Shown: one piece after another, positions 27,362 through 61,138 of the stretch
Layout: the number at the start of each line of letters is the position of its first letter
Position numbering within the stretch: position 1 is the first letter of the stretch
Assembly (NCBI GenBank): GCA_963717135.1
Contig: CAVQVN010000006.1
Coordinates: 75,995-139,994, forward strand
Reading direction: 5' to 3'
DNA: 64,000 bases
DNA from: an uncultured Actinomycetota bacterium
GTDB taxonomy: Bacteria; Actinomycetota; Acidimicrobiia; Spongiisociales; UBA4744
Notes under the pieces: generated by a model
What the model was told of the DNA's origin: nothing
The model's input: only the letters and a program-made list of their open reading frames with translations
Database searches by the model: none
Made by a program: the position numbers and the translations under genes

Positions 27362-28126
27362 GTGGGGGTATCGTTGAGAAGAGCCCACCAGCGAGGTCAA
27401 ATGAGTCGCCGGTCCACGCCCGTGCTCGCCTGGCAGGAGGATGAAGGAGGCGAGAGCGCCGGGCCGTACACCATTCGATTAGAGGCACCTCGACGTTGGC
27501 AACTTCTCGTCAAGGGGCGGTCGGTCGGATTTCACGAAACCAAGACCGCGGCCCGACAAGCAGCGACGGAATTGAACCGACGACACGGCGTCAAGCGACA
27601 GCTGGTTGGCTATCTCGTGGTTGCCGGCGTCTCCCTGGCCGGCCTCGGGACGGCCCTGGTCGCACGCACCGAACCCAACCCCCAGTACCCGCCCGCCCGG
27701 GCCATCGCCGATCGCTTCGACCAAGCCAGGCTGGCGGTCGAGGAGGGTCGGGTGACCATCGATCAGGTCGATCAGATGTTTGATGGTATTGAGGGTGGCT
27801 CCTTCGAGCATGGTGGCCGTGTCAAGCTTGGACTCACCGGGGTCTTTGATGGCGCCTGTTACGCCATGACCTGGCGATCCGGTTATCCGCTGGGCGGCGT
27901 GGTGGTCCGCAGCAACTACCTCACCTGTCAACCCGATCCGAGCCTCATCGATCAACCCGACCCTCCGGGACTGGTGGCGGAGCCTGTACGGCCCTCCTGG
28001 AAGTATGCCCTCCCCGATCCGGTCCAGACCCGGGTGTGGTTCATTCCGGTGGTCGCCATCTTCTTCGGGTTGTTCCTGGCAACGGCCCTTCGCGCCATAG
28101 GCCTGCTGTTTGCCCTAAGAAGATGA
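27362..28126 (+). CDS. hypothetical membrane-anchored protein
   Basis: 254-aa ORF with one central and one C-terminal hydrophobic helix. No recognisable domain. Start uncertain. Confidence 0.5.
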   Translation: MGVSLRRAHQRGQMSRRSTPVLAWQEDEGGESAGPYTIRLEAPRRWQLLVKGRSVGFHETKTAARQAATELNRRHGVKRQLVGYLVVAGVSLAGLGTALVARTEPNPQYPPARAIADRFDQARLAVEEGRVTIDQVDQMFDGIEGGSFEHGGRVKLGLTGVFDGACYAMTWRSGYPLGGVVVRSNYLTCQPDPSLIDQPDPPGLVAEPVRPSWKYALPDPVQTRVWFIPVVAIFFGLFLATALRAIGLLFALRR

Positions 28127-41643: not shown

Positions 41644-42474
41644 CTACGTGATGATCTCGATGGCGTCTGATAGGGCGCGGATCAGGCCGAACACGGTGGC
41701 ACCTGCCAGACCGACGAAGCCGAGCAGCATGCCCGCCATGGAGGACCGGTTGGGTCTGAGGGCGTGCCACCACCACAGCAGCGTTCCGGCGGCGGCTATC
41801 ACGACGAAGACCGACGAGATGATCGGTGGGTCGCAGTCGCATGCCTGCCTGGAGAACAGCAGGAAAGGGGCGGCAAGGCCAGCCAGACCGGCACCTACCA
41901 GAGCCAGAAACGCATATACCCAGCGCCCCGTAACGTCATCGATGCCCGGTAGACGACGATCCAAGATTCCGAACATCCACTCCATGAACGCTCCGAACCC
42001 GACAAACAGACCAACAATCATCGCCACCACCAGGACGCTGTTGCCCAAGACCAAGAAGTCGAAGTTGTCAGGATTGAGAACGTCCGAGGTTGCACTACCA
42101 ACCGCAAACAACAGCAGGCCGAACGCGATCCCTCGCCACCGTCCCGCCCACGCCAACCACGGGCGAAACACGAGATACATGACCGCTCCGACAATCCCCA
42201 CCAAAACCCCGACGAAGGTCACCAGACCGAGAGTGCCGCCCAGGGTGATCTCTCCCACAGTGAACCCTGCTTCGGTGGTGGCACCCTGAGCGGAGTCGGG
42301 TGCGACGGCCCCGGCGACCCGCATGAACAGCCTTCCCCCCAAACCTCCAACCAGCAGACCCGTGACCAGACCGACGACCCCCGCCACGGTGATATGGCGG
42401 GCCAACCCCAACAGCGTCTCAAACGGCGGGGGCGACCCATTTCGGGCAGCCAGAGTTAGCCGTTGCAGAGTCAT
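41644..42474 (-). CDS. polytopic membrane protein of unknown function
   Basis: C-terminal 277 aa of ORF 41644..43254 starting MTLQRL (ATG 42474 after GAGGGAGGAC). Gly/Val/Leu-rich helices. The ORF's N-terminal 260 codons are antisense to the DM13 gene and rejected. Confidence 0.65.
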   Translation of the reverse strand: MTLQRLTLAARNGSPPPFETLLGLARHITVAGVVGLVTGLLVGGLGGRLFMRVAGAVAPDSAQGATTEAGFTVGEITLGGTLGLVTFVGVLVGIVGAVMYLVFRPWLAWAGRWRGIAFGLLLFAVGSATSDVLNPDNFDFLVLGNSVLVVAMIVGLFVGFGAFMEWMFGILDRRLPGIDDVTGRWVYAFLALVGAGLAGLAAPFLLFSRQACDCDPPIISSVFVVIAAAGTLLWWWHALRPNRSSMAGMLLGFVGLAGATVFGLIRALSDAIEIIT

Positions 42475-42906
42475 GTCCTCCCTCGCCTGCAAGGTCAACC
42501 AACCTATCAGAGAGTCGGCCCGGTTGGATAAACAAGTGGGTGGTTCCATGATTGGTGTGGCGACGGGAGCGGCCCGCAGACCGTTCCCCAACCGGCTGTG
42601 AGGGCGATAGGGTGGAGTTTGGTCGCGGTTCTTTGGGGAGCCTTGGGCGGGGCCTGCAAGCTGGAGCGCGAGATGCCCGAATTCAGTGAGGCGGGCACCA
42701 CCATCGAGGACGAGTTCGAATCGAGTAGCGAGGTTCGTGACCGTGGCGCGTCGTGATGGTCGCCCGGCGATGCCCGAATTCCGACGGTTCCCGTATTCAC
42801 CGGAACTCCTCTCGGCGTCGCACGTGGATGGTGTTTCGATCTTGTTCATCTCTTCTTGGGAATCCCTCGGGAGCAGACACGGTTCACCGATGAAAAGCGG
42901 AGGACT

Positions 42907-43506
42907 ATGACTGACCAGACCAATACCCGAACGAAACGACGCCTGCTCATGGGAAGCGGAATACTGGCCATCCCGGTGGTTGCGCTGGCTTGGTGGCTTG
43001 GTTCGCCATTGTTCCTGGATACCACCGTCGACGAGACCTTCCCCATCGTTGAAGCTGTCACACCGGACAGCAACGACCCAAGCGCCCAAGGCGATGGACC
43101 CGCGACCCCCGCAGTCCCGGCCCTCGGCACTTCTGAAGCTGAGGAAGCGGCAGCCGGACCCATCCAACTTCTCACAGGCGCATTTGTCGATGCCGACGCC
43201 GCCCATCGGGGCAGCGGATCGGCAACTATCTTCGAGCTCGAAGATGGTGCTCATGTGCTTCGTTTCGAGGACTTCGAGGTGACCAACGGTCCCGACCTAC
43301 ATGTTCTGCTCGTACCGACCGACGACCCAGTCGACCGGGAGTTCCTCTCCGACGTTGGGTATGAGAATCTCGGCAAGCTGAAGGGCAATGTGGGCAACCA
43401 GAACTACGACCTTCCTGAGGGGTTTGACCCGGACGGGTCATGGACGGTCGTGATCTACTGCGACCCGTTTCACGTCGTGTTCAGCACGGCCCGACTGTCC
43501 CGGTGA
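42907..43506 (+). CDS. DM13 domain-containing protein with N-terminal membrane anchor
   Basis: ATG 42907 after GGAGGAct. TM anchor LLMGSGILAIPVVALAWWL. DM13 signature GSGSATIFELEDGAHVLRFEDFEVTNGPDLHVLLV. Confidence 0.8.
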   Translation: MTDQTNTRTKRRLLMGSGILAIPVVALAWWLGSPLFLDTTVDETFPIVEAVTPDSNDPSAQGDGPATPAVPALGTSEAEEAAAGPIQLLTGAFVDADAAHRGSGSATIFELEDGAHVLRFEDFEVTNGPDLHVLLVPTDDPVDREFLSDVGYENLGKLKGNVGNQNYDLPEGFDPDGSWTVVIYCDPFHVVFSTARLSR

Positions 43507-43637: not shown

Positions 43638-44120
43638 TCAGGAATCTGGGGCGAAGCGGTCGTCCGCTTCACGGAGGCTTTGTGTCTCCGGGTCGTCCAT
43701 CCAGCCGTTGCGAGTGACGGCGAAGACGTCGAAGCGCTTCGAGTACGGCTTGATGTCGAGGAGGGGGGTGCCATCGAGGATATCCAATCCGTCTACGCGC
43801 AGAATCCGTCCTTCCCGGCGTAGCAAACGCACCGGGGAGATGCCGATTGGGTTGGGACGAGATGGCGCCCGGGTGGCAAAGAGGCCGCGCCGGCGAGTGT
43901 CGAGATAGGGTACGACCTTCATCTGCACCGGACCTACCCGATCGAACCACACGATCAGCCAGATCCGCTCGAACCCCTCCAGATCGTCGAGGCCTTCCGC
44001 AAATCTCTCGTACACCTCGACCGTGCCGACCGCCTCTCGCCCGGCACAAGCCGGTTGAACCGGTGTGCCCGACTGGGAGGAGAACCGGCTATGCACGATT
44101 CCTATCGGTTCAAGCTGCAC
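43638..44120 (-). CDS. tsaA: tRNA (adenine37-N6)-methyltransferase TsaA/YaeB family (TrmO)
   Basis: 160 aa, GTG start after GAAGGAAGGAAG. Motifs LEPIGIVHS, ...NPIGIS, DGTPLLDIKPY. Confidence 0.85.
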   Translation of the reverse strand: MQLEPIGIVHSRFSSQSGTPVQPACAGREAVGTVEVYERFAEGLDDLEGFERIWLIVWFDRVGPVQMKVVPYLDTRRRGLFATRAPSRPNPIGISPVRLLRREGRILRVDGLDILDGTPLLDIKPYSKRFDVFAVTRNGWMDDPETQSLREADDRFAPDS

Positions 44121-44212
44121 GATGGCTTCCTTCCTTCATCACGGGCTGTATTTGGTCTGGCGTACTGCCCATACCTCCCCGGCGGAGCAACTCTCTCCTC
44201 CATCGGGAGGCG

Positions 44213-44950
44213 TCATTTCCCAATCTCACGCCGTTGCATTGTCAGCAAGCGGACCCCTCGCATCTGCTGGAAGATCGCTCCCTCCGACAAACAACGCAGT
44301 GCCTGTTCCGCATCGGTCACACGAGTACCGGAGATCACGTCCACCCCATAGTCGAACAGAACCGGTGAAAGAGGCGCGGTAGGACCGAGAACCATCACCA
44401 AGCTGTCCGGCCGGCAGAGGCTCAACAGGTGTTCGATGGTGTGGTTGATGAAGGCACTGCCGGTTATGGCCACGACATCGGCTTGGCCAACCAGGGCGTC
44501 TCCCTCACCGGGCGTCACGTCTCCCAGTTGGGGCTCTTGCTCGATGACCCAGAGTTGGCCGGCGGCTTCGCGCAGCTCTGGCACGAACGGGAAGTGGCCG
44601 ACCAAGGCCACTCGCTTGGAGCGACCGTGCTCGATGAGGAACCGGCCGGCGTTGAGCTCGACGCATCGCGTTTCGTCGACCTCCAGCAGGGAGTTGACGG
44701 CGGCCAGACCGATGCCGGCCTCGAGCGTACTGTTGCTGAAAGCGAGCCGGACTAGGTCGGAGGCCGACCCGGTGGTCAACCGACCCGGTGTCTCTACCAG
44801 AGCCGAACCATGGAGGTGTTTTCCCGGCAATATGGTGGAGGCGAGACCGCAGAAACGGCTCCACACCGCCGTCCAGAAAGGTCCGATACGCACCTCGCGA
44901 ACAGGTGTATCCGCGTCCAGGCCGGCTATCAGGTCATCCAAGATTCTCAT
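44213..44950 (-). CDS. DUF4213/DUF364 family protein (Rossmann-like, putative metal-chelatase fold)
   Basis: ORF 44213..44983. Start chosen at ATG 44950 (MRILDDLIAGL..., family-typical N-terminus). Last gene of the Hdr-like operon. Confidence 0.7.
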   Translation of the reverse strand: MRILDDLIAGLDADTPVREVRIGPFWTAVWSRFCGLASTILPGKHLHGSALVETPGRLTTGSASDLVRLAFSNSTLEAGIGLAAVNSLLEVDETRCVELNAGRFLIEHGRSKRVALVGHFPFVPELREAAGQLWVIEQEPQLGDVTPGEGDALVGQADVVAITGSAFINHTIEHLLSLCRPDSLVMVLGPTAPLSPVLFDYGVDVISGTRVTDAEQALRCLSEGAIFQQMRGVRLLTMQRREIGK

Positions 44951-44979
44951 TGCAGCGACCGTATTCGTGCGACGCCACG

Positions 44980-45378
44980 TCAATGAAGCCGGTCGGTCTT
45001 GTTTGGCAGATCACCCCGGGCAAAGCGCTGGATTGCTTCGGAGACGCCATGCTCATCTGTGATGACGGTCTCGATGCCGACCGCCTGCATACTCTCGAAC
45101 GCACCCTGGCCCATACCGCCGGCGATGAGGAAGTCACAGTCACCGATGGTCTCCGCCATCGCCTGGTGTTTTGCCGGCGAACCATGACCGTAGCCGTGTG
45201 GTTGCCCCGGTTCCGCAAGCCCGTGATCATGGCCTGCAAACTCTTCGTGACCGACTTTGGGTCGGAGTTCCCGTGCCACCACCTCGCCAGCTTCCAGCGT
45301 CACCACCAGGTAGGAGCGGGCTCTGCCGAAGTGACGACTGACGGTCACGCCGTCGTTCGTGACCACGGCTATCTTCAC
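44980..45378 (-). CDS. NifX/NifB-like dinitrogenase FeMo-cofactor-binding family protein (Nitro_FeMo-Co fold)
   Basis: ORF 44980..45558 trimmed to GTG 45378 (VKIAVVTNDGVTVSRHFGRA...CDFLIAGGMGQGA...). Small MTH1175-like fold. Confidence 0.7.
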   Translation of the reverse strand: MKIAVVTNDGVTVSRHFGRARSYLVVTLEAGEVVARELRPKVGHEEFAGHDHGLAEPGQPHGYGHGSPAKHQAMAETIGDCDFLIAGGMGQGAFESMQAVGIETVITDEHGVSEAIQRFARGDLPNKTDRLH

Positions 45379-45410
45379 AACCCGCGTGCTTAGCCGTTCC
45401 CCGGGGACGC

Positions 45411-45662
45411 TCACAGCCGCTCCGCCAACCACAGGGCGGTCCACGCCGAGGGTGCCAGCAACGATGCCAGTTGATCGACGTCGAGCCCGTCGATGCGGTC
45501 CTGGGTTGCGCTTTCGGATATGTGCGAACAATCGCCTTCCCGGGAGGTGAGCCCGCACAGCGCCACATGACTGTGAGCGAGTTGGTGGGCCATCTCCCGC
45601 AGCGTGCCGGGATCAGCCTTGCGGAGCGCTTCCTCCACTTCGTGAAGCGTGACGACACGCAT
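45411..45662 (-). CDS. DUF1858 (hybrid-cluster-protein-associated redox disulfide-like) small protein
   Basis: 83 aa. ATG after GAGAGGAGTATCC. HVALCG and GLDVDQLASLL resemble DUF1858 LHCLGCP...GIDVDALVAEL. Confidence 0.6.
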   Translation of the reverse strand: MRVVTLHEVEEALRKADPGTLREMAHQLAHSHVALCGLTSREGDCSHISESATQDRIDGLDVDQLASLLAPSAWTALWLAERL

Positions 45663-45677
45663 GGATACTCCTCTCGT

Positions 45678-46703
45678 TTACGGTCGGACGGACAACGTTC
45701 CGACCACCGTTCTCTCTTGAGCGTGATCGACCGCCGCGGAAACCGGACAAAACGCTCTTTGGAGGAACACCGAGATGTCCTCCATCTCCAACGATCCGCC
45801 GGCTGCCTTCGACAATGAGGCCAGACAGATCGGACACATCGTGGTGACCTGCTTCCCACCAGTTGCCTTGAGCTGCTCGACCCGCTGCTGTCCAATGTCA
45901 TGGGCCTTCTTGGGGAAGAGCGCTTCGATAGGCCCACCACAGCAGTACGTGAGGTTTCTACTCGCCCGGGGTTCCCTCAGCGAATACCCGGCTCGCTCGA
46001 GCAATTGACGCGGTTGGTCAACGACACCTTCACTTCGGGCATACACACACGAGTCGTGAATAACTACATCCTCGCCGATCCGGCGCAAAGGCTCGGCGTC
46101 GGCGTCGGCCAACACCTCGAGGTAACTCTTGACCTCGATATCGAACCCGTCGATCACGGTCGGATACACGCTGCGCAGCATGTTGGTCGTGTGGGGATCG
46201 AGGGTTATGGCGTTCCGGACACCATGCTTCTTGAAGGTGGCGTATACCTTCTTGGCGTGCGCCGCCAGCGTGGCATCGACTCCCATGTCGTAGGCTAGAG
46301 CGCCGGCGTACAGATCGTCTTCGTAGAGATACCCGAACTCGATCCCAGCCTGCTGCAACAGACCGGCGATGTTCTTGAGCATCTGATCGTACTTCATGGT
46401 CTCGGATCGGGACGGTCGAGCTGCCAGCGACGACAGATTCACAAAACGGTTGGCGAACCTGCCGAGGAACACAAACCTGGTCAGGAAGGTGTCTTCGACC
46501 CGTTCCAGCAGTCCCACCATAGAGATGATGTATGGGAGCAGCTGGTACATGGCACCGGTGTAGAGCACCGTGGCTCCCCCTCGGGGAATACCCAAACCGT
46601 CCGCCCAACGGGTCGACTTCCTGGCCGACATTGGAAAGACCGAGCCCCTCTTGTTGAGGTTGTCGACCATCAGACCAACGATGTCACCGGTGGGCAAGGG
46701 CAT
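45678..46703 (-). CDS. hdrB: HdrB-like CCG-domain iron-sulfur protein
   Basis: ORF 45678..46820 trimmed to ATG 46703 (MPLPTGD) after GAGGAAGGAAC. Two CCG-type Cys-rich domains (ITLDPHTT.., DSCVYARS, YCCGGPIEALFPK, MCPICL). Confidence 0.75.
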   Translation of the reverse strand: MPLPTGDIVGLMVDNLNKRGSVFPMSARKSTRWADGLGIPRGGATVLYTGAMYQLLPYIISMVGLLERVEDTFLTRFVFLGRFANRFVNLSSLAARPSRSETMKYDQMLKNIAGLLQQAGIEFGYLYEDDLYAGALAYDMGVDATLAAHAKKVYATFKKHGVRNAITLDPHTTNMLRSVYPTVIDGFDIEVKSYLEVLADADAEPLRRIGEDVVIHDSCVYARSEGVVDQPRQLLERAGYSLREPRASRNLTYCCGGPIEALFPKKAHDIGQQRVEQLKATGGKQVTTMCPICLASLSKAAGGSLEMEDISVFLQRAFCPVSAAVDHAQERTVVGTLSVRP

Positions 46704-47037
46704 GTTGTTCCTTCCTCGCGGCGGGATCCGCATCCAGCCCGAATAGCTCGCGGTCGATGTAGCCGCGCAAAAAACGCACGTTCTCGGCAATGTGCACGTC
46801 GGCCGTGCAGTTCTCCTCACACAGTTTGCAAAGCAGGCATTGGAAGATCGACTCGGTCTGGTCGAGAACTTCTTCCTTCAACCCCAGCACCGTGTACCGG
46901 AAGAGCTTGCGGGGCATCAGATCGATCCCCAACGGGCATACCGCGCTGCAAACCCCGCAGTTCAAGCAGGCCCAGGCATTGAAATCCTCGGAGGTCGCTA
47001 CCTCTTCTGCGAATTCAAGATCGACCTTGCAAGTCAC
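46684..47037 (-). CDS. hdrC: HdrC-like 4Fe-4S dicluster ferredoxin
   Basis: 117 aa, GTG start. CLNCGVCSAVCP and CLLCKLCEENC motifs. 20-nt overlap with hdrB start. Confidence 0.75.
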   Translation of the reverse strand: MTCKVDLEFAEEVATSEDFNAWACLNCGVCSAVCPLGIDLMPRKLFRYTVLGLKEEVLDQTESIFQCLLCKLCEENCTADVHIAENVRFLRGYIDRELFGLDADPAARKEQHALAHR

Positions 47038-47285
47038 GTCGGTTGCTCCTTCTCGACCGCGGCGTAGGAGAAGTAGTCATCCTCATTGGGCTGGCCGCTC
47101 TCCTTTACCAAGCCGTACCGCCGGGCTGCCATAACCCAGTACATGACTTCGTGCGAAGGACACCCCATCGCCTGGGCGATCTCAGGTACCGTCTTCGGGC
47201 CATCCGCCAGAGCGGCCACAAGGCCGTTGCGCATGACCATTTCGTCTCGCATGACCTCGCGCGCTTCTCGCAATAGCTCAGACAT
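47034..47285 (-). CDS. small hypothetical protein between hdrA and hdrC
   Basis: ORF 47034..47306 trimmed to ATG 47285 (MSELLREAREVMRD), 8-nt overlap with hdrA stop. No recognised domain. Positionally equivalent to the 'hyp' gene of sHdr clusters. Confidence 0.5.
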   Translation of the reverse strand: MSELLREAREVMRDEMVMRNGLVAALADGPKTVPEIAQAMGCPSHEVMYWVMAARRYGLVKESGQPNEDDYFSYAAVEKEQPT

Positions 47286-48990
47286 GGACGACCCCCAACG
47301 CTTCAATCATCGCTCGAATCTGCTGGTCCGTGGAACCGCGCAACTGGAGCGCGCCTTGAGGACAAGAGGGAACGCAAGCCCCGCACCCTTTGCACATGGC
47401 CTCGCTCACCGCCGCTACCTCCTTGCCCTCAATGCGGACCTCGGCGATGGCGCCGTACGGACAGGCGCCGACACATACATCACACCAGGTGCATGCCTCC
47501 GGATCTACGGTGGCGATCAGCGGCTCCAGCTCGACATATCCTTTCTTCAAGAGGGCCGCACTCTTGGCGGTGGCCGCTAAGGCGGAAGCGACGCTTTCTG
47601 CCGAGCTCCGGGGAGCCTGGCAGGTGCCGGCAATGAACACTCCATCGATCACGGTCTCGACGGGACGGAGTTTCGGATGGATCTCCATGAAGAAGCCGTC
47701 CAGCCCGACCGGGAGTTTGAGCACATCGTTCAGGGCGTTATTGGCGCGCGGCTCCATGGCGGTCACCAGCACAACCAGATCGCTTTCGACTTCCAGCTCT
47801 TTGCCACCGGTCAGGACGTCCTTGACCGTCAATCGACAACCACCGTTGTGCAATGCGATCTGGGGAGGTTCCGAAGCGTCGAATTTGATGAAGACGGATC
47901 CCATCTGGCGGCTTTGCTGGAAGAGCGTCTCGTATTTGCCGTAGGTGCGAATATCTCGATACAAGTGGAACTGGTGCAGGGCGGGCGATCGCTCATGTGC
48001 CACCAGGGAGGCGTGCATCACGGCATTGCAGCAGTAGCGCGAACAGTATTGGTGGCCGTTGCCTTCGCAACGGTCACCTACGCAGTAGATGTAAGCGATG
48101 CTCGCCACTGGTCTGCCTTGGTATTCAAGTGGTCCCTCGGAACCGTCGAGGAGTTGTTTGAATTCGGGCAGGGTCAGCACCCGGTCGCTGCCGTAGCCGT
48201 ACTCCCCCGCGGCGGGCTGGTATACATCGAAACCGGTGGCCACGATGATGGCACCCACGTTGAGCGAGATGAGTTCGCCGGCCACTGCCAGAGTGACCGA
48301 GAAGTCGCCGATGGTCCCCGCCTTCTCGACCAGCTCAGCGTTCGTGTAGATCGTGATGTTGTCCCGCAGGTCGATGTCGTGAACCAGTTCGGCTACCAGT
48401 TCGTGCCCGACCCGATCATGCGGGTACATCTTGTTGAAACCGCCCACCCATCCCCCGACCCTGTCGGTCCGTTCGACTACAAAGGCGGAGATACCGAGGT
48501 CGGACAGGGCCAGGGCGGCCCGCAATCCGGCGATCCCGGCACCTACCACGAGTGCCCGCGGCACCGTGTCGATTCGGGTCTTTTCGAGTGGCTCGGTGAA
48601 CCGGGCTTTGGCGATCCCGGCCCGAACCATGGCAATGGCCTTCTCGGTGGCCGGCCCGGGCAGATCGGTGTGGGCCCACGAGCACTGCTCGCGTAGGTTC
48701 ACCTGAACGTACTGGTACGGGTTGAGTCCCGCCCGCTCCGCGACTCCTCGGAAGGTCATCAGGTGGAGGGTCGGCGAGCAGGAAGCGACGACAATGGCGT
48801 CCAGGTGTTGCTCCCGAATGTCGTCGATCATCTCCTGCTGGGCCGCGTCGGAGCAGGCGAACATGGTGGTCCTGGCGATCTCCACCGCGGCTTCACCGGC
48901 GACTTCGCTCCGGACCCGCTCGCAGTCGACGTAGTCAGAGATGTTTCCGCCGCAGTAGCAGATGTACACGCCGATCCGCCGGTCGTTCAT
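47278..48990 (-). CDS. hdrA: HdrA-like FAD/iron-sulfur flavoprotein with N-terminal MvhD/FlpD-like domain
   Basis: 570 aa. N-terminus IGVYICYCGGNISDYVD...TMFACSD...AIVVASCS parallels MvhD ILGFLCNWCSYAGAD...MCSGR...VLVSGCH. FAD dinucleotide motif ALVVGAGIAGL. C-terminal 2x[4Fe-4S] CTWCDVCVGACP / CKGCGACVPSCP. Confidence 0.8.
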   Translation of the reverse strand: MNDRRIGVYICYCGGNISDYVDCERVRSEVAGEAAVEIARTTMFACSDAAQQEMIDDIREQHLDAIVVASCSPTLHLMTFRGVAERAGLNPYQYVQVNLREQCSWAHTDLPGPATEKAIAMVRAGIAKARFTEPLEKTRIDTVPRALVVGAGIAGLRAALALSDLGISAFVVERTDRVGGWVGGFNKMYPHDRVGHELVAELVHDIDLRDNITIYTNAELVEKAGTIGDFSVTLAVAGELISLNVGAIIVATGFDVYQPAAGEYGYGSDRVLTLPEFKQLLDGSEGPLEYQGRPVASIAYIYCVGDRCEGNGHQYCSRYCCNAVMHASLVAHERSPALHQFHLYRDIRTYGKYETLFQQSRQMGSVFIKFDASEPPQIALHNGGCRLTVKDVLTGGKELEVESDLVVLVTAMEPRANNALNDVLKLPVGLDGFFMEIHPKLRPVETVIDGVFIAGTCQAPRSSAESVASALAATAKSAALLKKGYVELEPLIATVDPEACTWCDVCVGACPYGAIAEVRIEGKEVAAVSEAMCKGCGACVPSCPQGALQLRGSTDQQIRAMIEALGVVHV

Positions 48991-51692
48991 ATCCGCACCC
49001 TTTCGACATAGGCACCGGCCAGCGCTGCCGCGGCCGCCGACTGAAGGATCGTGTCCGGAATATCCATGACGGCCGCCGCGGAGCCGGCTGCGAAAACTCC
49101 TTCGATACTCGTCCGGGCCGGACTGTGATCCTCGTCGATCTCCTTCACGAAGTTATGGGCATCAGCCTCCAACCCGCCGTTGGAGAAGAGACGCATTGCG
49201 TCCTGATTGGGAAGCATCCCTACCGAGAGGACAACGAGGTCGTGTTCGGCCTCAACGACACCTCCATCGCCGGCGATGTTCTCGTAGCGCACGACGAGAT
49301 TGCCGTTTTCCGCTCCGCTGATATCGGCAACTTTGCCCTTCACGAAGTAGGTCCCCATGGCTTTGGACTGCTGATAGAACTCTTCGAAGCCTTTTCCAAA
49401 GGCTCGAACGTCGATGTAGTAGATGGTCACGTCTGCCATCGGCAGCGCTCCCATGATCAGCTGGGCTTGCTTGACGGTATACATGCAGCACACGCGGGAG
49501 CAGAGCTCATTCCCGACCTGACAATCACGCGATCCGGCGCACAGAATGTAGGCAATGTTGTCGGGAATCTTCCCATCCGAGGGCCGCAGCACGGAGTTGT
49601 AGGGCCTGGTCGGCGACAAGAGCCGATCCATCTGCATGGCAGTAATGACGTTGGGGAACCGGCCGTAGCCGTATTGCGGTTTGCGGAGCGGTTCGAAGAG
49701 TTCGAATCCGGTCGAGACGACCACCGATCCCACATTGAGGGTGAACGCTTCGTCGCGCAAGCCCAGGTCGATGGCATGGCCCGGGCAGACGTTGAGACAC
49801 TGGTGACACTCCGAACATCCGCCGCAGTCGAGACAGCGTCCGGCGCCGGATCGCGCTTCCTCCTCGGAAAGGGGCAGCTCGACCTCTGCGAAATCGCCGA
49901 TCCGTTCCGGGGCGGGGCGTTCCGCAGTCTGCGCTCCGTTGAGGTAGCGGTAGGTTCGCTGCCGGGCAAGCACGTCCTTTCTTTCCACCACCGGGAGGCG
50001 TTGGTCGTATTCGCCGGCGTTGAGATCCTCGCCATTGAGGAAACGGTCGATGAAGTAGGCCGCCCTCCGGCCCTGGCCGAGAGCGTCGGTGATCGAACTG
50101 GGACCGGTCACCAGGTCTCCTCCGGCGAACACATGCGGGACGGTGGTCTGCAGCGTTCCGGGATCAGCCTGAACCCGACCGCTCCGGGTGACACCTAATC
50201 CATCTTTCCAACCGACCGGCGTGGGAACCAGGCCGACGGCAATGATGGCGAAGTCCACGTCGGCATTCGATTCGGACCCCTCCACGGGGAGCGGTCGCCG
50301 CCGACCGGAGTCGTCGGGTTCGCCGAGCCGCATCCCGATCGACTCAGCCCGGACCAGTTTGCCGTCTTGGCCGAAGAACCGGACCGGGACCCGGAGGTAC
50401 TCGACCTCGATCCCTTCGGCCAGGGCGGCCTCGATCTCCCAGTCGAACGCCGGCATCTCGGCCCGGCTGCGTCGATATTGAATCGTCACTCGAGCGGCGC
50501 CCAACCGACGGGCTACCCGGGCGGAGTCGATCGCGACATTGCCCCCTCCCACCACCAACACCCGACGACCGGTGAGGTCAGGATGGTTCCCCTGGTTGAC
50601 GGTGCGCAAGAACTCGAGAGATCTGACCACGCCATCGAGGTCTTCGCCCTCGATGCCCATTGCCCGGTCTGTAGCAGCCCCGCAGGCGACGAACACCGCC
50701 TCGAACCCTGCCGTCTCGAGATCTTTCAAGTTGTCGATTTGCCGGCCGGTCTGTAGGTCGACACCGAGGGAAGTGATGTTCTTGATGTCCCGATCCACGA
50801 CATCCTTGGGCAATCGATAGGAGGGGATCGCATAGCGAAGCATTCCGCCCGGCTGGTCGTCCGCCTCGAAGATGGTGACGAGATACCCCTGCCGGGCCAG
50901 GTCGTAGGCAGCCGCCAGGCCGGCGGGTCCGGATCCCACCACCGCCACCTTCTTGTCGAGAAGGTGGTCGGGAGGCCCCTGTTTTGGTTCCGGGTATCGG
51001 GCGTAGTACTCGTCGGCCACGAACCGCTTCAGTCTCCGGATCGGGACTGCTCCCTCGAGTTCATCCCGGGTGCATTGGTCCTCGCAGGGGGCATAGCATG
51101 CCCTTCCCAGAGACCCGGGAATGGGGACAGCCTCGAGGATCAGGTCCATGGCCTCCTCGTACAGACCACTCCGCACCAAGGACACGTACCCGTGCGCCTT
51201 GATCCCCGCCGGGCACGCATAGGTACAAGGCGAACTGCCGGCCCGGTCGATCACGGCCTTCTTGGGGACCGCCTGCGAGTAAGGGATGTAGGCGGCCCGA
51301 CGCGCCACCAGGTCGAAGTTGAATTGATCGGGAATGGCCACCGTGCAGGCCACCTCACACTGAGAGCATCCGGTACAGCGATCTGGGTCAACGAAGGTCG
51401 CCTTCCTATTGATATCGACCTGGAAGGTTCCGTCCGAGCTTCGTTCGATTCTGGTCACCTCAGCGGAGGTGAGCGTCTCGATTCGGGGATGGTGGAACGT
51501 GGCGGCCATCTTCGGGGTGGCGATGCAACTAGCACAGTCGAGAGTGGGGAATACCTTGCTCAGCAGGATCATCGTGCCGCCGATCGATGCTTCCTTTTCG
51601 ACGAGCACGACGGAATAGCCCATATCACCGAGGCTAAGAGCCGATTCCATACCCGCCGTTCCACCCCCGACTACCAGAGCGTCGTAATCCAT
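48987..51692 (-). CDS. HdrL-like large flavoprotein: HdrA with inserted GltD/NfnB-type NAD(P)H-binding oxidoreductase module
   Basis: ORF 48987..51707 trimmed to ATG 51692 (MDYDALVVGGGTAG). HdrA N-domain + inserted ferredoxin CTGCSQCEVAC. GltD-like region (SPCTYACPAG...RACYAPCEDQC, VAVVGSGPAGLAAA, second NAD site VLVVGGGNVAID). Ferredoxin CLDCGGCSECHQC. HdrA C-domain (CAGSRDC..CSRVCC). ATGA overlap with hdrA. Confidence 0.8.
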   Translation of the reverse strand: MDYDALVVGGGTAGMESALSLGDMGYSVVLVEKEASIGGTMILLSKVFPTLDCASCIATPKMAATFHHPRIETLTSAEVTRIERSSDGTFQVDINRKATFVDPDRCTGCSQCEVACTVAIPDQFNFDLVARRAAYIPYSQAVPKKAVIDRAGSSPCTYACPAGIKAHGYVSLVRSGLYEEAMDLILEAVPIPGSLGRACYAPCEDQCTRDELEGAVPIRRLKRFVADEYYARYPEPKQGPPDHLLDKKVAVVGSGPAGLAAAYDLARQGYLVTIFEADDQPGGMLRYAIPSYRLPKDVVDRDIKNITSLGVDLQTGRQIDNLKDLETAGFEAVFVACGAATDRAMGIEGEDLDGVVRSLEFLRTVNQGNHPDLTGRRVLVVGGGNVAIDSARVARRLGAARVTIQYRRSRAEMPAFDWEIEAALAEGIEVEYLRVPVRFFGQDGKLVRAESIGMRLGEPDDSGRRRPLPVEGSESNADVDFAIIAVGLVPTPVGWKDGLGVTRSGRVQADPGTLQTTVPHVFAGGDLVTGPSSITDALGQGRRAAYFIDRFLNGEDLNAGEYDQRLPVVERKDVLARQRTYRYLNGAQTAERPAPERIGDFAEVELPLSEEEARSGAGRCLDCGGCSECHQCLNVCPGHAIDLGLRDEAFTLNVGSVVVSTGFELFEPLRKPQYGYGRFPNVITAMQMDRLLSPTRPYNSVLRPSDGKIPDNIAYILCAGSRDCQVGNELCSRVCCMYTVKQAQLIMGALPMADVTIYYIDVRAFGKGFEEFYQQSKAMGTYFVKGKVADISGAENGNLVVRYENIAGDGGVVEAEHDLVVLSVGMLPNQDAMRLFSNGGLEADAHNFVKEIDEDHSPARTSIEGVFAAGSAAAVMDIPDTILQSAAAAALAGAYVERVRI

Positions 51693-51693
51693 C

Positions 51694-52128
51694 TCAACCA
51701 ACCTCACTCATCGCTTCGAGAGCAATCAACGCCTCGGAGAACTGGGCCATGTGGCGTGCAAATGGTTCTGCACACACCGAGCAAATGGCTGCCATTTTCA
51801 AGCGTTCTGGAGGAATACCTCTCTCTCTCATCAGATCCTGAGCAACGGCGGTGATGTGCGCCGTGCGATCGGTGCAATCGGCCAAATACGGGCAATCGCT
51901 GCCGTCGGCGGCAATGAAGACCCCATCAAACCCTCGGTCGATCGCGAACAGGATCCAATCCGGGCGGATTCCGCTCGAGCATGAAACCGCGATACAACTG
52001 ACCGAGGGTGAGTAGTGCAGATGAGTGCTGCCCGCCAGGTCGATGCCGATGTCAGAGATCGTGGACGTCGAGAACACCAGGATACGTGGGCGATCTCCGG
52101 CCGCGGCGGGGTCCAGGTCCGCCGGCAT
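51694..52128 (-). CDS. mvhD: MvhD/FlpD-like protein (methyl-viologen-reducing hydrogenase delta subunit family) with variant Cys pattern
   Basis: 144 aa. ILVFSTSTISDIGIDLAG...IAVSCSSGIRPDWILFAIDRGFDGVFIAADGSDCPY aligns to MvhD, but the N-terminal CxxC pair is replaced by STST. Confidence 0.75.
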   Translation of the reverse strand: MPADLDPAAAGDRPRILVFSTSTISDIGIDLAGSTHLHYSPSVSCIAVSCSSGIRPDWILFAIDRGFDGVFIAADGSDCPYLADCTDRTAHITAVAQDLMRERGIPPERLKMAAICSVCAEPFARHMAQFSEALIALEAMSEVG

Positions 52129-52130
52129 CG

Positions 52131-52388
52131 TTATTTGGCTCGTTTGACGAAGATCCGCCAGTACCCGGCTTCCGCGATGGTCCCCAGGTATTCATGACCG
52201 ATCTTGGCCGCCCACCGGGGAAGGTCGTTGCTTGTGCTCACATCGGACGACCGGACCTCCATGACACCGCCAACCGGCACCGTCGTGATTCCTCGCTTGG
52301 CCTCCAGGAGTGGACCCGGACAGGCGACCCCGCGAGCGTCGATCTCTTTGTCGGGAGTGAGCGTGGCGAGTTCTTCAGTGGTAATCAT
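52131..52388 (-). CDS. tusA: TusA-like sulfurtransferase
   Basis: 85 aa with CPxP motif (DARGVACPGPLLEAK). Confidence 0.85.
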   Translation of the reverse strand: MITTEELATLTPDKEIDARGVACPGPLLEAKRGITTVPVGGVMEVRSSDVSTSNDLPRWAAKIGHEYLGTIAEAGYWRIFVKRAK

Positions 52389-52420
52389 GATTCTTCTCTC
52401 TCTTCAGTTGGGAGGATCGA

Positions 52421-52777
52421 CTAGAAAGTGAGGACGACATCCGCCTCCTCGGCTTCGGCCACGAACGTGGCAACCCCCTGGCACTCGACCCCGTCGATGA
52501 GATCCGCTTCGGTACAGTCGACGATCGGGAAAGCTGCGGAGCAGGCCAGCAACCTGGCGCCGCCCTTCTTGACGGTGTCGATGAACTCAGGCAATGTTTT
52601 CGGCGCCCCATCGAGCTTGATCACATCGGCTCCGTCCTTGAGCACGATGTTGAGACCACTCATCGTGAAGAACAGAACGAGTTCCATATCGAGCGCCAGG
52701 GCCCCCGATCCCAACATGAAAGGGGGAAATGCTTTCTCGGGTTCATCCGATCCGCAAAAGACGACCATTTTTGACAT
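52421..52777 (-). CDS. DsrE/DsrF-like sulfur relay family protein
   Basis: ORF 52421..52813 trimmed to ATG 52777 (MSKMVVFCGSDEPEKAFPPF...) after AAAGGAG. Conserved Cys in MVVFCGSD typical of DsrE-type active-site. Confidence 0.75.
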   Translation of the reverse strand: MSKMVVFCGSDEPEKAFPPFMLGSGALALDMELVLFFTMSGLNIVLKDGADVIKLDGAPKTLPEFIDTVKKGGARLLACSAAFPIVDCTEADLIDGVECQGVATFVAEAEEADVVLTF

Positions 52778-52927: not shown

Positions 52928-53629
52928 ATGACCACGGGAATTCTGACCAGAACCCGCCACATCGTGGTGCTAGACAATGACCCGGACATGCGCAGGACGA
53001 TTGGCGCCATCCTGGAGGAAGACGGATTCCGCGTGACACCAACCGGCGATGGAGACGCCCTCCTCGCCATGCTCCCCGAGCATCACCCCGATCTAGTCAT
53101 CCTCGAGATGGTGCTTCCCGGGATGCCCGGTCTCGAGGTCCTCCGCCGATTGCAGGAGCATGGGCGTGTCCCGGCCATTGTGGTCAGCAGCAAGAGCTCC
53201 GAGACTGATCGGATCGTCGGTCTGGAAATGGGAGCGGATGACTACCTGGCCAAACCGTTCTCTCCCCGGGAACTACTGGCGCGGGCGCATGCGGTGCTCC
53301 GTCGCACCGAGCACGAATGCCCGTGCGACACCCTCGAATACGACGGTCTCCGCCTCGACCTGACTTGTCGCGACGTCGTCATCGACGGTGATCTCATAGA
53401 ACTCACTTCGCTCGAATTCGATCTGCTGGCTTTCATGGCCGGCTCCCCCCGGCAGGTCTTCTCCCGGGAAATGCTCCTGGACCGGGTCTGGGGGTCGTCG
53501 AGCGAGTGGCAAACGGCCGCCACCGTTAGCGAGCACATCCACCGACTGCGCCGCAAGATCGAACGGGACCCAGCCAATCCTCGATGGATCCAGACGCTGC
53601 GTGGAGCCGGGTATCGCTTCGTGCCCTGA
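52928..53629 (+). CDS. OmpR/PhoB family response regulator (orphan)
   Basis: 233 aa. REC + winged-helix (LRLDLTCRDVVIDGDLIELTSLEFDLLAFMA...). Divergent from the Hdr-like operon. No kinase adjacent. Confidence 0.88.
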   Translation: MTTGILTRTRHIVVLDNDPDMRRTIGAILEEDGFRVTPTGDGDALLAMLPEHHPDLVILEMVLPGMPGLEVLRRLQEHGRVPAIVVSSKSSETDRIVGLEMGADDYLAKPFSPRELLARAHAVLRRTEHECPCDTLEYDGLRLDLTCRDVVIDGDLIELTSLEFDLLAFMAGSPRQVFSREMLLDRVWGSSSEWQTAATVSEHIHRLRRKIERDPANPRWIQTLRGAGYRFVP

Positions 53630-53734: not shown

Positions 53735-54199
53735 GTGACGATGACCAAATGGGCGCCATTCAGCGCATTCACGGAACTCGAGCAAGAAATGCACACGCTG
53801 CTTGATCACTTCGGTGGACGCCCCTGGCTGGAAGGCTTCGGCTGGCGGCCGGATACCGACATCTCCCGGGAGGGCTCGACGTTGGTGGTCGAAATGGACC
53901 TTCCCGGCATGGACCCGTTTCATGATCTCCACATCGATCTGGTCGACAACGTGCTCAGGATCGAAGGCGAGCGATGCGAGTCGCGACCCGTCAAGGAGGC
54001 CGACCGCTACATCCACGAACGCCGATGCGGATGCTTCCACCGCAGCGTGATGCTCCCGGACGGTGTGAAGCCTGAGACAGTCAGCGCCCACTACGAGAAC
54101 GGGACGCTGACGGTACGAATACCGATGCCTGATGTTTCGGTAGCCGGAAGCCAACGTCACCAGATACCCATAAGGATCTCTGAACGGATAGGTATTTGA
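53735..54199 (+). CDS. Hsp20/alpha-crystallin family small heat-shock protein
   Basis: 154 aa. ACD pattern (WRPDTDISREGSTLVVEMDLPG..., AHYENGTLTVRIP). Confidence 0.85.
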   Translation: MTMTKWAPFSAFTELEQEMHTLLDHFGGRPWLEGFGWRPDTDISREGSTLVVEMDLPGMDPFHDLHIDLVDNVLRIEGERCESRPVKEADRYIHERRCGCFHRSVMLPDGVKPETVSAHYENGTLTVRIPMPDVSVAGSQRHQIPIRISERIGI

Positions 54200-54675: not shown

Positions 54676-55527
54676 ATGTCCTTGATCGGGCTGCAGTACT
54701 ACCAAAGGCCTACCACACTCGAATCGGCCCTTGAACAGGTTCGAGCAAGTGGTCCCGGAGCCCGGTTCATGGCTGCGGGTACGGACCTGGTCTTGCACGG
54801 TGGCGACGAGATCACCACCCTCATCGACCTATCGGACCTGAACCTAGCCTATGTCGGAGCGGAAAATCACGACATCGCCATCGGGGCCATGACGACCCTG
54901 ACCGACCTGATGGAGCACCCCATTTTGGCCGGCTATCTCGGGGGGATTGTGCCCACGGTGATCCGTCAGGTCGGGTCTCCGCTGCTCCGCAACCTGGCGA
55001 CGGTCGGGGGAAGCCTGGTCCGCCGCCAGCCATGGTCGGACGTCGTCCCGCTATTCCTGGCACTGGGCGCCACCGTCCGCCACTTCGACGGAACAAAACA
55101 TGAGGAAACTCTGGCCGAATTCTACGGAAGGCCCGGACACTCTCCCGGAGACATCCTGACCGAGATTGTGCTGCCGGCCCCGAAACCTCTTGCCGTTGCG
55201 GCGTTTGAAAAATTCACCCGGTCCGCGGTCGACGTCGCTCTGCTCAACTGCGCGGTGTTCATCCGTACCAAACACGATCAATGTGTTGAAGCGCGGGTCT
55301 ATGTCGGCGGTACGCCTCGGTCGGCAGCCGCGGTCCCCGCGGTCGTCGAGATGCTGCAAGGGAGGGAGCTTGACGACGAGGTTATCTCGGAAGCCGCCCG
55401 GATCGCCGCCGCCGAGGTGCCGACCGGCGATGACCGTCGGGCTTCTGCCGTCTACCGATCCCACCTGGTTGGGGTGGGGATCGGACGCTGCCTCCGCCGG
55501 ATAGCGAGGGAGATGGAGGCGGCATGA
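54676..55527 (+). CDS. molybdenum hydroxylase FAD-binding subunit (CoxM/XdhB-like)
   Basis: 283 aa. FAD-binding-5 motifs (AAGTDLV, ...ATVGGSL). Confidence 0.85.
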   Translation: MSLIGLQYYQRPTTLESALEQVRASGPGARFMAAGTDLVLHGGDEITTLIDLSDLNLAYVGAENHDIAIGAMTTLTDLMEHPILAGYLGGIVPTVIRQVGSPLLRNLATVGGSLVRRQPWSDVVPLFLALGATVRHFDGTKHEETLAEFYGRPGHSPGDILTEIVLPAPKPLAVAAFEKFTRSAVDVALLNCAVFIRTKHDQCVEARVYVGGTPRSAAAVPAVVEMLQGRELDDEVISEAARIAAAEVPTGDDRRASAVYRSHLVGVGIGRCLRRIAREMEAA

Positions 55528-55991
55528 AGATAGCGTTGACCATCAATAGTGTTTCTCGAACGTTGGAGTCACCGCTGGGCGAAACGCTGCTGGATCTCCT
55601 CCGCCGGGAGAACTACAAGAGTGTCAAACTCGGCTGCAACACGGGAGACTGCGGGACTTGTGCTGTCCTGTTGGACGGTCGGGCCGTCAACGCCTGCATG
55701 CTTCTGGCGGCGGCCTGCGCCGGAAGGTCGATCGTCACCGTCGAAGGTCTTGAAGCTGATGGTCGCCTACATCCGCTTCAAGAGGCTTCGCTGGATTCCG
55801 GTGCGGTGCAGTGCGGCTTCTGCACTCCGGGCATGATCGTGGCGGCAATTGATCTTCTCGACAAGAACCCCGACCCCTCGGAGCAGGAAATTCGGGAAGG
55901 CTTGGCCGGCAACTTGTGCCGCTGCACCGGCTATGTGAAGCAGGTAGCAGCCGTCCGGATGGCCAGCGGGAGGGGGAACGCCGATGCTTGA
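55524..55991 (+). CDS. molybdenum hydroxylase (2Fe-2S) iron-sulfur subunit (CoxS-like)
   Basis: 155 aa. Plant-type CNTGDCGTC and second CGFCTPGM / CRCTGY motifs. Confidence 0.88.
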
Positions 55992-59757: not shown

Positions 59758-59888
59758 CCGGCGATTCGAATCAGTCCGCCTGGTCCCCAGAACCCTCCAG
59801 TCTTGGCCAAGATTGTGCGTTAGTGCCGGGCGAGATCACAGACCGGGACCGGGCCGACGAGGATCGGATATGTTGGAGGTGATCGACT

Positions 59889-60935: not shown

Positions 60936-61138
60936 CCGCACCCGCACGAAGATCGAACGGCGTAGCGGGGAGAGGTCCGGAGAACTCACAAGAGACGCCC
61001 GGAAATCTGCGTATCGACGCCGGTTGGGCCTTTCGCCCCTGGGACGGAGGGCCGATCATCGCTTCGTGATTTTCTTCACAAGCAGGTACCTTGGGAGCCG
61101 GCACATGCCAACGCCGACGAGAGAGAAAGGTGATTGAC

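Follow-up and report, generated by a model that had tools for sequence, protein, structure and literature searches.

What reaction is carried out by an operon that joins sulfur-carrier proteins to a heterodisulfide reductase (Hdr)-type module with its own NAD(P)H-binding domain? This question is raised by a run of 11 co-directional minus-strand genes at positions 44213-52777 of a 64-kb stretch of contig CAVQVN010000006.1, the whole of which is called the window here, from an uncultured member of the Actinomycetota. The operon is real and strongly conserved, and no earlier account of its TusA/DsrE-linked form was found in the literature searched; sets comprising HdrL, HdrA, an HdrC/HdrB pair and MvhD have already been reported. 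We tentatively regard the core as a soluble, multi-subunit iron-sulfur flavoenzyme of the Hdr type. A role as an NAD(P)H-linked reductase of sulfane sulfur or disulfide bound to TusA/DsrE, possibly coupled to ferredoxin, is the reading that comes nearest to being probable while still falling somewhat short of it.

Gene content and conservation of the cluster

The gene content, the cofactor and cysteine motifs, the NAD(P)-binding module and the synteny described below were observed directly. Except for the weak HTH matches of the winged-helix protein, the Pfam matches given for genes of the run are above curated cut-offs, and NCBIfam was used alongside. The cluster opens with a DsrE3-like sulfur-carrier protein of 118 amino acids (52421..52777, minus strand as for all genes of the run; DrsE_2 at 73 bits and DsrE at 38 bits), the TusA sulfur-carrier protein of 85 amino acids (52131..52388; TusA at 66 bits, with a CPGP motif) and an MvhD-type [2Fe-2S] adaptor of 144 amino acids (51694..52128; FlpD at 82.5 bits). 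These are followed by HdrL, an HdrA-type flavoprotein of 901-906 amino acids (48987..51707; Fer4_20 and Pyr_redox_2 at residues 153-646), and by HdrA itself, whose 570 amino acids align to the HdrA of 5ODC and 8RVU (47278..48990). The core is completed by a small winged-helix protein of 83 amino acids that lacks cysteine (47034..47285; weak Pfam HTH matches and an AlphaFold fold), a 117-amino acid HdrC-like ferredoxin subunit with two [4Fe-4S] clusters (46684..47037; Fer4_8 and Fer4_17) and an HdrB-like CCG protein of 341 amino acids (45678..46703; a single CCG match at residues 213-297). Three accessory genes, discussed in the last section, close the run.

The genes overlap or are separated by gaps of no more than 32 nt, with successive junctions, from the DsrE end to the DUF364 end, of +32, +2, +1, -4, -8, -4, -20, +15, -4 and +29 nt. 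GGAG-type ribosome-binding sites precede most of the starts, and an independent gene call on the same contig (ENA ERZ25039600) gives identical genes. A consensus scan for promoters and terminators yielded nothing above shuffle expectation, and this includes terminator-like signals inside 44213-52777. The packing claimed by an earlier sequence-only reading is thus borne out, as is its description of an Hdr-like module whose second HdrA contains an NAD(P)H domain of the GltD/NfnB type, together with MvhD, one HdrC/HdrB-like pair, TusA and DsrE. That reading counted eleven genes in its title and named ten; the count is correct, and the gene left unnamed is that for the winged-helix protein. Ten Pfam or fold assignments were confirmed for the 11-gene cluster. 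Among the proposed labels, Pfam and NCBIfam agree with DsrE, TusA, MvhD, HdrL, HdrA, HdrC, CCG, NifX-like and DUF364, and the exception is DUF1858 for the 83-amino acid open reading frame (ORF) at 45411-45662, which has no Pfam match even at E ≤ 10.

There are 1724 relatives of the CCG protein at E ≤ 1e-5 in a collection of 5.8 billion proteins, and at E ≤ 1e-30 they form 199 clusters at 50% identity. When a single genome of each GTDB species was scanned by pattern, 445 were found to encode the CCG family. To evaluate synteny, the twelve window proteins were compared by tblastn with the 80 best loci. Of the 58 loci on sufficiently long contigs (23 loci cut by a contig end were excluded from this set), 57 keep the order TusA-MvhD-HdrL-HdrA-winged helix-HdrC-HdrB intact, and one deviates. 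In all 57 complete loci TusA is the first core gene, and these loci, like the window, carry a single HdrC/HdrB-like pair. A DsrE gene adjoins the core in 49 of the 57, being located upstream in 26, downstream in 22 and on both sides in one; the downstream gene encodes a longer, DsrE2-like form, as for example in Bacillota. The winged-helix gene is found in essentially all loci, always between HdrA and HdrC, and its family comprises only 79 clusters, each of about 80 amino acids. The conserved system therefore consists of eight genes (DsrE3-like, TusA, MvhD, HdrL, HdrA, winged-helix, HdrC-like and HdrB-like) rather than the eleven first proposed.

Hosts are distributed across about a dozen phyla. 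They include Actinomycetota (Acidimicrobiia, Thermoleophilia and Gaiellales), Bacillota (Desulfallas, Desulfoscipio, Desulfotruncus, Desulfotomaculum copahuensis and metagenome-assembled genomes (MAGs) of Peptococcaceae), Zixibacteria, MAGs of Desulfobacterota/Myxococcota, Kiritimatiellales/Pontiella, Lentisphaerota, Bacteroidales, Ignavibacteriales, Dehalococcoidia and Thermoflexia of the Chloroflexota, Spirochaetia, Pirellulales of the Planctomycetota, and Fermentibacteria. The nearest loci, with 82-88% identity, are from Acidimicrobiia/Actinomycetota MAGs, which makes Acidimicrobiia the probable class of the window organism. Cultured Desulfotomaculia also carry the cluster, among them Desulfoscipio gibsoniae (CP003273, at about 809.9-817.6 kb), Desulfallas thermosapovorans and Desulfotruncus. 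That the same core order is kept across phyla argues for one functional unit. The non-methanogenic, aerobic-leaning lifestyle hinted at for the window organism is not general, since most hosts are strict anaerobes or fermenters.

None of dsrC, dsrAB, electron-transferring flavoprotein (ETF), hydrogenase, formate dehydrogenase or LbpA recurs among the 80 related loci, and a Pfam scan of the 64-kb window found no LbpA/GcvH-type protein, second HdrCB pair, hydrogenase or formate dehydrogenase. The absences reported earlier from the sequence therefore hold over the window and, for the core, in the 80 loci. An lbpA-hdrC2B2 set just outside the cluster, which would have made it a canonical sulfur-oxidising Hdr-like (sHdr) system, was not found within the 64 kb.

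Judged from their descriptions, the HdrABC/HdrL loci of sulfate reducers, known from genomes and proteomes only (PMC2702500, PMC5947623, PMC4759654), are the described systems that come closest to the cluster. HdrL was named in Desulfobacterium autotrophicum, whose locus VIII is among the loci compared; one locus of this species has hdrL and hdrA in tandem with hdrACB (PMC2702500). In Syntrophobacter fumaroxidans, Sfum_0819-0824 were detected only with sulfate (PMC5947623), and in Desulfotomaculum reducens, Dred_1325-1330 are induced more than 20-fold by sulfate and have been proposed to pass electrons from NADH to DsrC by bifurcation (PMC4759654). Like the cluster described here, these loci combine HdrL, a second HdrA, MvhD and one HdrC/HdrB pair, and lack a hydrogenase. 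By their published descriptions they differ in an extra FdhB-like iron-sulfur subunit, in gene order and in the proposed reduction of DsrC; Pfam finds no FdhB-like gene in the window cluster, and no TusA, DsrE or winged-helix gene, all of them present here, has been reported for those loci. The sequence-only statement that the architecture maps onto no characterised system is accurate for biochemistry, but the HdrL/HdrA/HdrCB/MvhD sets were already known from genomes and proteomes. For the TusA/DsrE-linked form, no description was found in the full-text literature, a search that did not cover a review of HdrA neighbourhoods (Appel et al. 2021) that may list it. The D. gibsoniae genome paper is silent on the cluster, though that genome carries it.

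This resemblance raises the possibility that the cluster encodes an NADH-dependent bifurcating DsrC reductase that feeds dissimilatory sulfite reduction, with TusA and DsrE acting as peripheral relay helpers. Similar sulfate-linked subunit sets (HdrC, HdrB, a large NADH-binding HdrA, HdrA and MvhD) in D. reducens (PMC4759654) and S. fumaroxidans (PMC5947623) speak for it, as does the presence of several sulfate-reducing Desulfotomaculia among the hosts. However, many hosts belong to groups not known for sulfate reduction (Kiritimatiellales/Pontiella, Bacteroidales, Ignavibacteria, Acidimicrobiia and Thermoleophilia), no dsrC, dsrAB or FdhB-like gene recurs beside the core, the gene order is unlike that of the published loci, and TusA is invariably the first gene. 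We consider a DsrC reductase improbable.

Flavoproteins, carriers and the CCG subunit

HdrL is built from two recognizable parts, with residues 159-637 matching NfnA/NfnB/GltD entries in the PDB and residues 625-900 matching HdrA. An NfnB/GltD-type module that carries flavin adenine dinucleotide (FAD), an NAD(P)H site and two [4Fe-4S] clusters interrupts its inserted ferredoxin domain, and HdrL is without the N-terminal and C-terminal domains of HdrA. There are 21 conserved cysteines, including those in the two parts of the ferredoxin domain that flank the module, and the motifs FPTLDC-x-S-C and CCMY-x-x-K are kept in all 58 orthologues. Relative to NfnAB, the NfnB-type module is located inside HdrL, no NfnA is encoded, and MvhD is the sole [2Fe-2S] candidate.

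The companion HdrA is closely related to methanogen HdrA (E values of 1e-117 to 1e-119, compared with 1e-32 against sHdrA, 6TJR) and retains its N-terminal, flavin and C-terminal ferredoxin domains. It aligns to the methanogen protein in 5ODC and 8RVU at residues 1-235 and 314-636 only and, because the alignment skips the residues in between, it lacks the inserted ferredoxin domain. In 54 orthologues, variable residues other than cysteine stand in place of the flavin-adjacent CxxC ('DCSIC' in 5ODC), and histidine stands in place of the lysine of 'CCMYAMK' (near flavin N5).

A lysine near flavin N5 and a CxxC disulfide have been described as hallmarks of bifurcating flavins in HdrA-type modules, and BamE is a fused HdrA dimer with one bifurcating and one non-bifurcating FAD (bioRxiv 10.64898/2026.04.10.717634). 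Because the hallmarks are likewise kept in only one HdrA-like unit of the present system, we infer by analogy with BamE that HdrL and HdrA may form a heterodimer with a single bifurcation-type flavin, sited in HdrL. The BamDEF assembly of class II benzoyl-CoA reductase shares more than its HdrA-like pair with one bifurcating FAD, since its MvhD-like adaptor includes a winged-helix element and its high-potential exit is an HdrBC-like subunit (bioRxiv 10.64898/2026.04.10.717634). It differs in that its HdrA units are fused, NADH enters via a NuoEFG-like module, and a tungsten enzyme is the low-potential exit. Similarly, HdrA9-11 of ANME-1 archaea carry an NfnB-like module of about 500 residues within the inserted ferredoxin domain, and it has been proposed that these fusions have two potential bifurcation sites and that HdrA paralogues form heterodimers (PMC9012536), but they are archaeal, occur in the context of methane oxidation and have no association with TusA/DsrE. 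The FlxABCD-HdrABC system of Desulfovibrio is also NADH-linked and Hdr-like, without hydrogenase and with an MvhD-like FlxD (as cited in PMC4759654, PMC5947623). There the NAD(P)H site is on the separate protein FlxA, whereas here it is fused into an HdrA paralogue and no Flx genes are present.

The tblastn match to HdrA is split in two in four loci, one from Actinomycetota (L004, 7711-9400) and three from Bacteroidales/Rikenellaceae (L045, L062 and L075). An insertion, a frameshift or an in-frame selenocysteine codon could each produce such a split; the HdrA/HdrL paralogues of D. autotrophicum are selenoproteins (PMC2702500).

The HdrB-like protein is non-canonical. Conserved cysteines in 16 diverse members of the CCG family are limited to C219, C254, C255, C290 and C293, which make up one complete CCG motif. 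The N-terminal CCG domain is free of cysteine, with YAG and DPHT at the motif positions in 16 of 16 aligned members; the first CCG domain of the HdrD-like protein 9OJN, with which the N-terminal half aligns, has CTG and CPHC there. This signature, Y-x-G / [DS]-P-H-[TSA], is present in most of the top 150 family representatives, and canonical two-motif proteins appear only at lower scores. With one intact motif, a single noncubane [4Fe-4S] cluster can be bound. Therefore, the name HdrB suits the fold of the protein but not its cluster-binding motifs, and it is presumably a catalytic subunit with one noncubane site. There is a precedent in sHdrB3 of the sulfur-oxidising sHdr system, which is also predicted to be a one-cluster CCG subunit (PMC11094781).

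Methanogen HdrABC-MvhAGD (5ODC, 8RVU) shares with the cluster the HdrA flavin, the N- and C-terminal ferredoxin domains, MvhD, a two-cubane HdrC and a CCG-fold subunit. Membership was nevertheless rejected on the HdrB motif, the architecture of HdrA and the missing hydrogenase. Methanogen HdrB has two CCG motifs (CX31-39CCX35-36CXXC) and two noncubane clusters, in contrast to the one motif here. Methanogen HdrA has an inserted ferredoxin domain, whereas the HdrA of this cluster is without that domain, the CxxC or the lysine, and is accompanied by a second HdrA that bears NfnB. Input of electrons to methanogen Hdr is through the MvhAG hydrogenase or a formate dehydrogenase, neither of which is present in the window or recurs in the loci, and the hosts here are bacteria without coenzyme M and coenzyme B.

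The CCG family profile matches 9OJN at 9e-17 and methanogen HdrB at an E value of about 1e-3. The AlphaFold model of the protein (pLDDT 77, pTM 0.81) is nearest to EtfD of M. smegmatis, then to LutA (second-best fold match, with 19% identity) and then to methanogen HdrB. A paralogous CCG clade has the same cysteine-free N-terminal domain in an S-P-H-A/S variant (L085, 7001-9219; L086, 7001-9188). It pairs with a LutB-like, LUD-domain iron-sulfur protein in Desulfitobacterium hafniense and Syntrophobotulus glycolicus, and constitutes an uncharacterised LutAB-like pair. Membership of the cluster itself in the LutABC or GlpC systems was rejected, given that the partner of the CCG protein is a 117-amino acid HdrC-like ferredoxin and that there are no LUD or GlpA/B genes; the cluster falls outside LutA/GlpC proper, though the paralogous clade is linked to LutB.

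Such relatives prompt the question of whether the CCG subunit acts on sulfur at all. The high-potential electron might instead leave it for a different carrier (ETF in the case of BamD, quinone in that of EtfD), or its substrate might be a small organic molecule, as with LutA; TusA and DsrE would then serve regulation or the maturation of clusters or cofactors. The ranking of EtfD and then LutA as best structural and sequence matches, the LutB-like partners of the paralogous clade with the same cysteine-free domain, and the transfer of electrons from the HdrBC-like BamD of class II benzoyl-CoA reductase to ETF (bioRxiv 10.64898/2026.04.10.717634) are all in accord with this idea. Yet the loci show no recurrent gene for an ETF, a quinone-binding or LUD protein or a substrate-specific dehydrogenase, and TusA and DsrE, with their invariant cysteines, are the only conserved non-redox partners. 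A non-sulfur role is accordingly regarded as quite unlikely.

The carriers are invariant at the positions expected to hold sulfur, with Cys23 of TusA kept in 28 of 28 orthologues and Cys79 of DsrE kept in 24 of 24; the solved structure nearest to the DsrE protein is that of DsrE3A, 3MC3. Five cysteines of MvhD are invariant across 35 orthologues. HdrC has eight conserved cysteines, and its top NCBIfam match is HdrC (TIGR03290), below the cut-off of that model. The winged-helix protein is modelled by AlphaFold (pLDDT 88) with a generic ArsR/MarR-like winged helix-turn-helix fold.

TusA also matches YedF-type selenium-metabolism models weakly, and HdrL and the CCG protein match NF045663, 'dicluster-binding protein near Sec'. 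Together with the selenoprotein paralogues of D. autotrophicum (PMC2702500), these matches could indicate a reductase for selenium species, rather than sulfur, bound to DsrE and a TusA/YedF-like protein. However, all of the model matches are far below curated cut-offs and no selD, selA or yedE recurs in the loci, which leaves selenium a highly improbable substrate.

Proposed electron path, substrate and direction

For the favoured NAD(P)H-linked reductase of carrier-bound sulfur, we infer a subunit assembly, electron path, substrate and direction as follows. An HdrL-HdrA heterodimer would replace the HdrA homodimer of methanogens. Hydride from NAD(P)H would be delivered to the NfnB-type flavin of HdrL, and electrons would then travel through the two [4Fe-4S] clusters of the NfnB module and the clusters of the flanking ferredoxin domain to or from the HdrA-type flavin of HdrL, with the [2Fe-2S] protein MvhD and the winged-helix protein as adaptors. 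On a high-potential path, electrons would leave the flavin-domain cluster, cross the C-terminal ferredoxin domain of HdrA and then HdrC, and arrive at the noncubane cluster of the HdrB-like protein. There, the substrate may be a persulfide, a polysulfide or a carrier disulfide on Cys23 of TusA or Cys79 of DsrE. The likeliest net reaction would be an NAD(P)H-dependent reduction of carrier sulfane sulfur or disulfide to thiol and sulfide, possibly coupled to ferredoxin. Because the second product of persulfide reduction is free sulfide, a persulfide would need just one thiolate-binding site, which would rationalise the loss of the second cluster.

Several features support this reductase reading. 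These are the invariant cysteines of TusA and DsrE, the NAD(P) module of HdrL, the single CCG site, the synteny, and the division of labour between HdrL and HdrA that parallels BamE. In addition, all ORFs of the 80 loci were clustered in a neighbourhood survey, and ArsR-family regulators whose nearest solved relatives include HlyU, NolR, SmtB, YgaV, SqrR and BigR are found near the core in 15 loci, where they would fit thiol or persulfide sensing. Fusions of CoA-disulfide reductase and rhodanese are located beside the core in four loci.

Other observations weigh against the reductase reading. The substrate and direction are drawn from genomic context. The closest solved relative of the CCG subunit, EtfD, handles ETF and quinone and no disulfide, and the nearest paralogous clade pairs with LutB-like proteins. 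Among the regulators, only the C-terminal cysteine position of the ArsR neighbours matches SqrR/BigR. CsoR/CstR-family regulators, which are divergent from tusA in 10 loci of the Bacillota, are nearest to copper-sensing CsoR, InrS and other CsoR-family repressors and may sense copper, because a copper-type P-type ATPase gene is found near the cluster in Desulfallas and D. gibsoniae. In the window itself, the regulator adjacent to the cluster is an OmpR-type response regulator.

Energetics pose a further difficulty. The reduction potential of persulfides and polysulfides is about -270 mV. At this potential NAD(P)H suffices without bifurcation and the reaction cannot pay for the reduction of ferredoxin, so that simple persulfide reduction leaves the bifurcation-type architecture unexplained. 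Possible ways out are a disulfide of higher potential, confurcating or oxidative operation, or a coupling of the two flavins in a manner not previously described.

The last of these options can be extended to a new class of sulfur enzyme, in which the NfnB-type and HdrA-type bifurcation flavins of HdrL, with coupled low-potential iron-sulfur chains, would interconvert NAD(P)H, ferredoxin and TusA/DsrE-bound sulfur. Examples might be the reductive cleavage of a carrier thiosulfonate or polysulfide, or the ferredoxin-assisted synthesis of TusA persulfide from sulfide. We regard this as a possibility worth keeping in view, although a doubtful one. If true, it would mean an unrecognised cytoplasmic route for sulfane sulfur in several hundred anaerobic and facultative species of about a dozen phyla.

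Oxidative operation leads to a comparison with the sHdr-LbpA systems (types I and II). These share with the cluster the tusA/dsrE genes that flank an hdr-like set and a small gene between hdrA and the next hdrC/B gene, and the predicted one-cluster sHdrB3 of type II (PMC11094781) resembles the CCG subunit. Their taxonomic breadth is also similar, with 397 assemblies (PMC11094781) versus the 445 species here. However, sHdr has LbpA, two catalytic arms (shdrC1B1 plus shdrC2B2 or shdrB3), EtfAB-EMO and a short sHdrA, none of which is present here, and it is the present cluster that has the NAD(P)H module and MvhD. Assignment to canonical sHdr was therefore rejected: there is neither LbpA nor a second HdrCB, and HdrA is of the methanogen type. 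The central proposal of the sequence-only reading is supported, namely that the system is Hdr-like and NAD(P)H-linked, is tied to a TusA/DsrE sulfur relay and differs from both sHdr and methanogen Hdr.

A lipoate-independent counterpart of sHdr that runs oxidatively might still be envisaged. It would oxidise carrier sulfane sulfur or make TusA persulfide from sulfide, and pass the electrons to NAD(P)+, perhaps by confurcation with reduced ferredoxin. The flanking tusA/dsrE genes of sHdr clusters and their small 'H' gene between hdrA and the second hdrC/B pair (PMC11094781), the direct NAD(P) site offered by HdrL, and the cytochrome bd of the window organism lend it some appeal. It is countered by the far closer match of HdrA to methanogen HdrA (1e-119) than to sHdrA 6TJR (1e-32), by the lack of LbpA and a second HdrCB pair in the window, by the presence of one noncubane site only, and by the strictly anaerobic or fermentative life of most hosts. 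Moreover, unless a second, low-potential donor takes part, the reduction of NAD(P)+ by sulfide or sulfane sulfur is energetically uphill. Oxidative operation is thus considered unlikely.

Neighbouring genes and biological meaning

The three genes that close the 11-gene run are not part of the conserved system. They encode the 83-amino acid ORF product (45411..45662), which has neither a Pfam nor an NCBIfam match, a NifX/Nitro_FeMo-Co family protein (44980..45414; PF02579 at 56 bits) and a DUF4213+DUF364 protein (44213..44950; 128 and 52 bits). Among the 80 loci, these genes follow HdrB only in the three closest ones from Acidimicrobiia (L004-L006), and DUF364 is directly adjacent only in L005. 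In another locus (L012, about 19100-21000), DUF364, TrmO_N and NifX-like genes are found together 9 kb away on the opposite strand. The restriction of the trio to the closest loci and this separate occurrence indicate a lineage-specific add-on or a separate abutting module outside the conserved system, and the proposal that three small cofactor-handling proteins are integral subunits was consequently rejected. A TrmO_N-domain protein (43638..44120, minus strand; TrmO_N at 122 bits) is encoded 92 nt downstream of the run and is possibly co-transcribed with the operon. The DUF4213/DUF364, TrmO_N and NifX-like genes (43638-45662, minus strand) suggest a separate small module, possibly related to metals or cofactors.

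On the other side of the cluster, a divergent OmpR-type response regulator (52928..53629, plus strand; Response_reg and Trans_reg_C) is a candidate regulator of the cluster in this lineage, being located at the same position in L004, L005, L006 and L083. Sigma-54-type response regulators and histidine kinases recur in loci from Zixibacteria and Desulfobacterota MAGs. In Desulfotomaculia, the CsoR-family regulator (L002, 3441-3860, minus strand; L084, 2673-3098, minus strand) has an unusual C-x2-C ... C-H pattern and always has TM_HPP and cupin genes beside it. The cysteine and histidine fingerprints of this family are C-H-C for CsoR and C-C for CstR, neither of which is matched by this pattern.

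Genes for NuoE-like and NuoF-like proteins and a 430-amino acid [2Fe-2S]/[4Fe-4S]/GcvH-like fusion follow HdrB in seven distant loci (L013, L015, L017, L018, L020, L022 and L024), all from MAGs of Zixibacteria, Desulfobacterota and Fermentibacteria. The GcvH-like fusion has no lysine at the lipoylation position in the single representative read. By analogy with BamGHI, of which it is reminiscent, this set may be a second NADH-input module.

Elsewhere in the window, an HSP20 gene (53735-54199) and a 95-amino acid ORF without matches separate the response regulator from a CoxM/CoxS/CoxL-like molybdenum hydroxylase operon (54676-58326, plus strand). The latter is followed by genes for a SufBD-like protein, a radical SAM protein and cytochrome bd subunits I and II (58411-63573, plus strand). 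Outside the operon, sulfur-related genes in the window are limited to two that lie about 30 kb away and encode a TauE/SafE-family membrane protein of the sulfite-exporter type (11104-11820, plus strand) and a pyridoxal phosphate-dependent enzyme of Cys/Met metabolism (13028-14347, minus strand). Three further ORFs have coding-like GC content at third codon positions and no Pfam match at E ≤ 1e-5: 28232-31672 (plus strand, 1146 amino acids), 27362-28126 (plus strand, 254 amino acids) and 41644-43254 (minus strand, 536 amino acids), the last with a C-terminal half that looks membrane-spanning. Housekeeping and unrelated functions make up the remainder of the window, among them a 2-oxoacid dehydrogenase E1, an ATP-binding cassette transporter, enzymes of arginine and histidine biosynthesis, and signalling proteins.

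Among the known devices that carry out flavin-based electron bifurcation, Hdr-type modules are the principal ones, and it is through TusA/DsrE relays that sulfur enters cytoplasmic metabolism. Here, the two are joined in a conserved union with an NAD(P)H link that is found in about as many species as the well-studied sHdr system, a breadth suggesting that a step of anaerobic sulfur cycling is both widespread and unassigned. The candidate roles are that it could detoxify sulfane sulfur, use sulfur as an electron sink or activate sulfur for biosynthesis. The system also constitutes a natural experiment on the asymmetry of HdrA dimers and on the function of a one-cluster CCG site, and its occurrence in cultured, sequenced Desulfotomaculia makes the question of its reaction directly testable.

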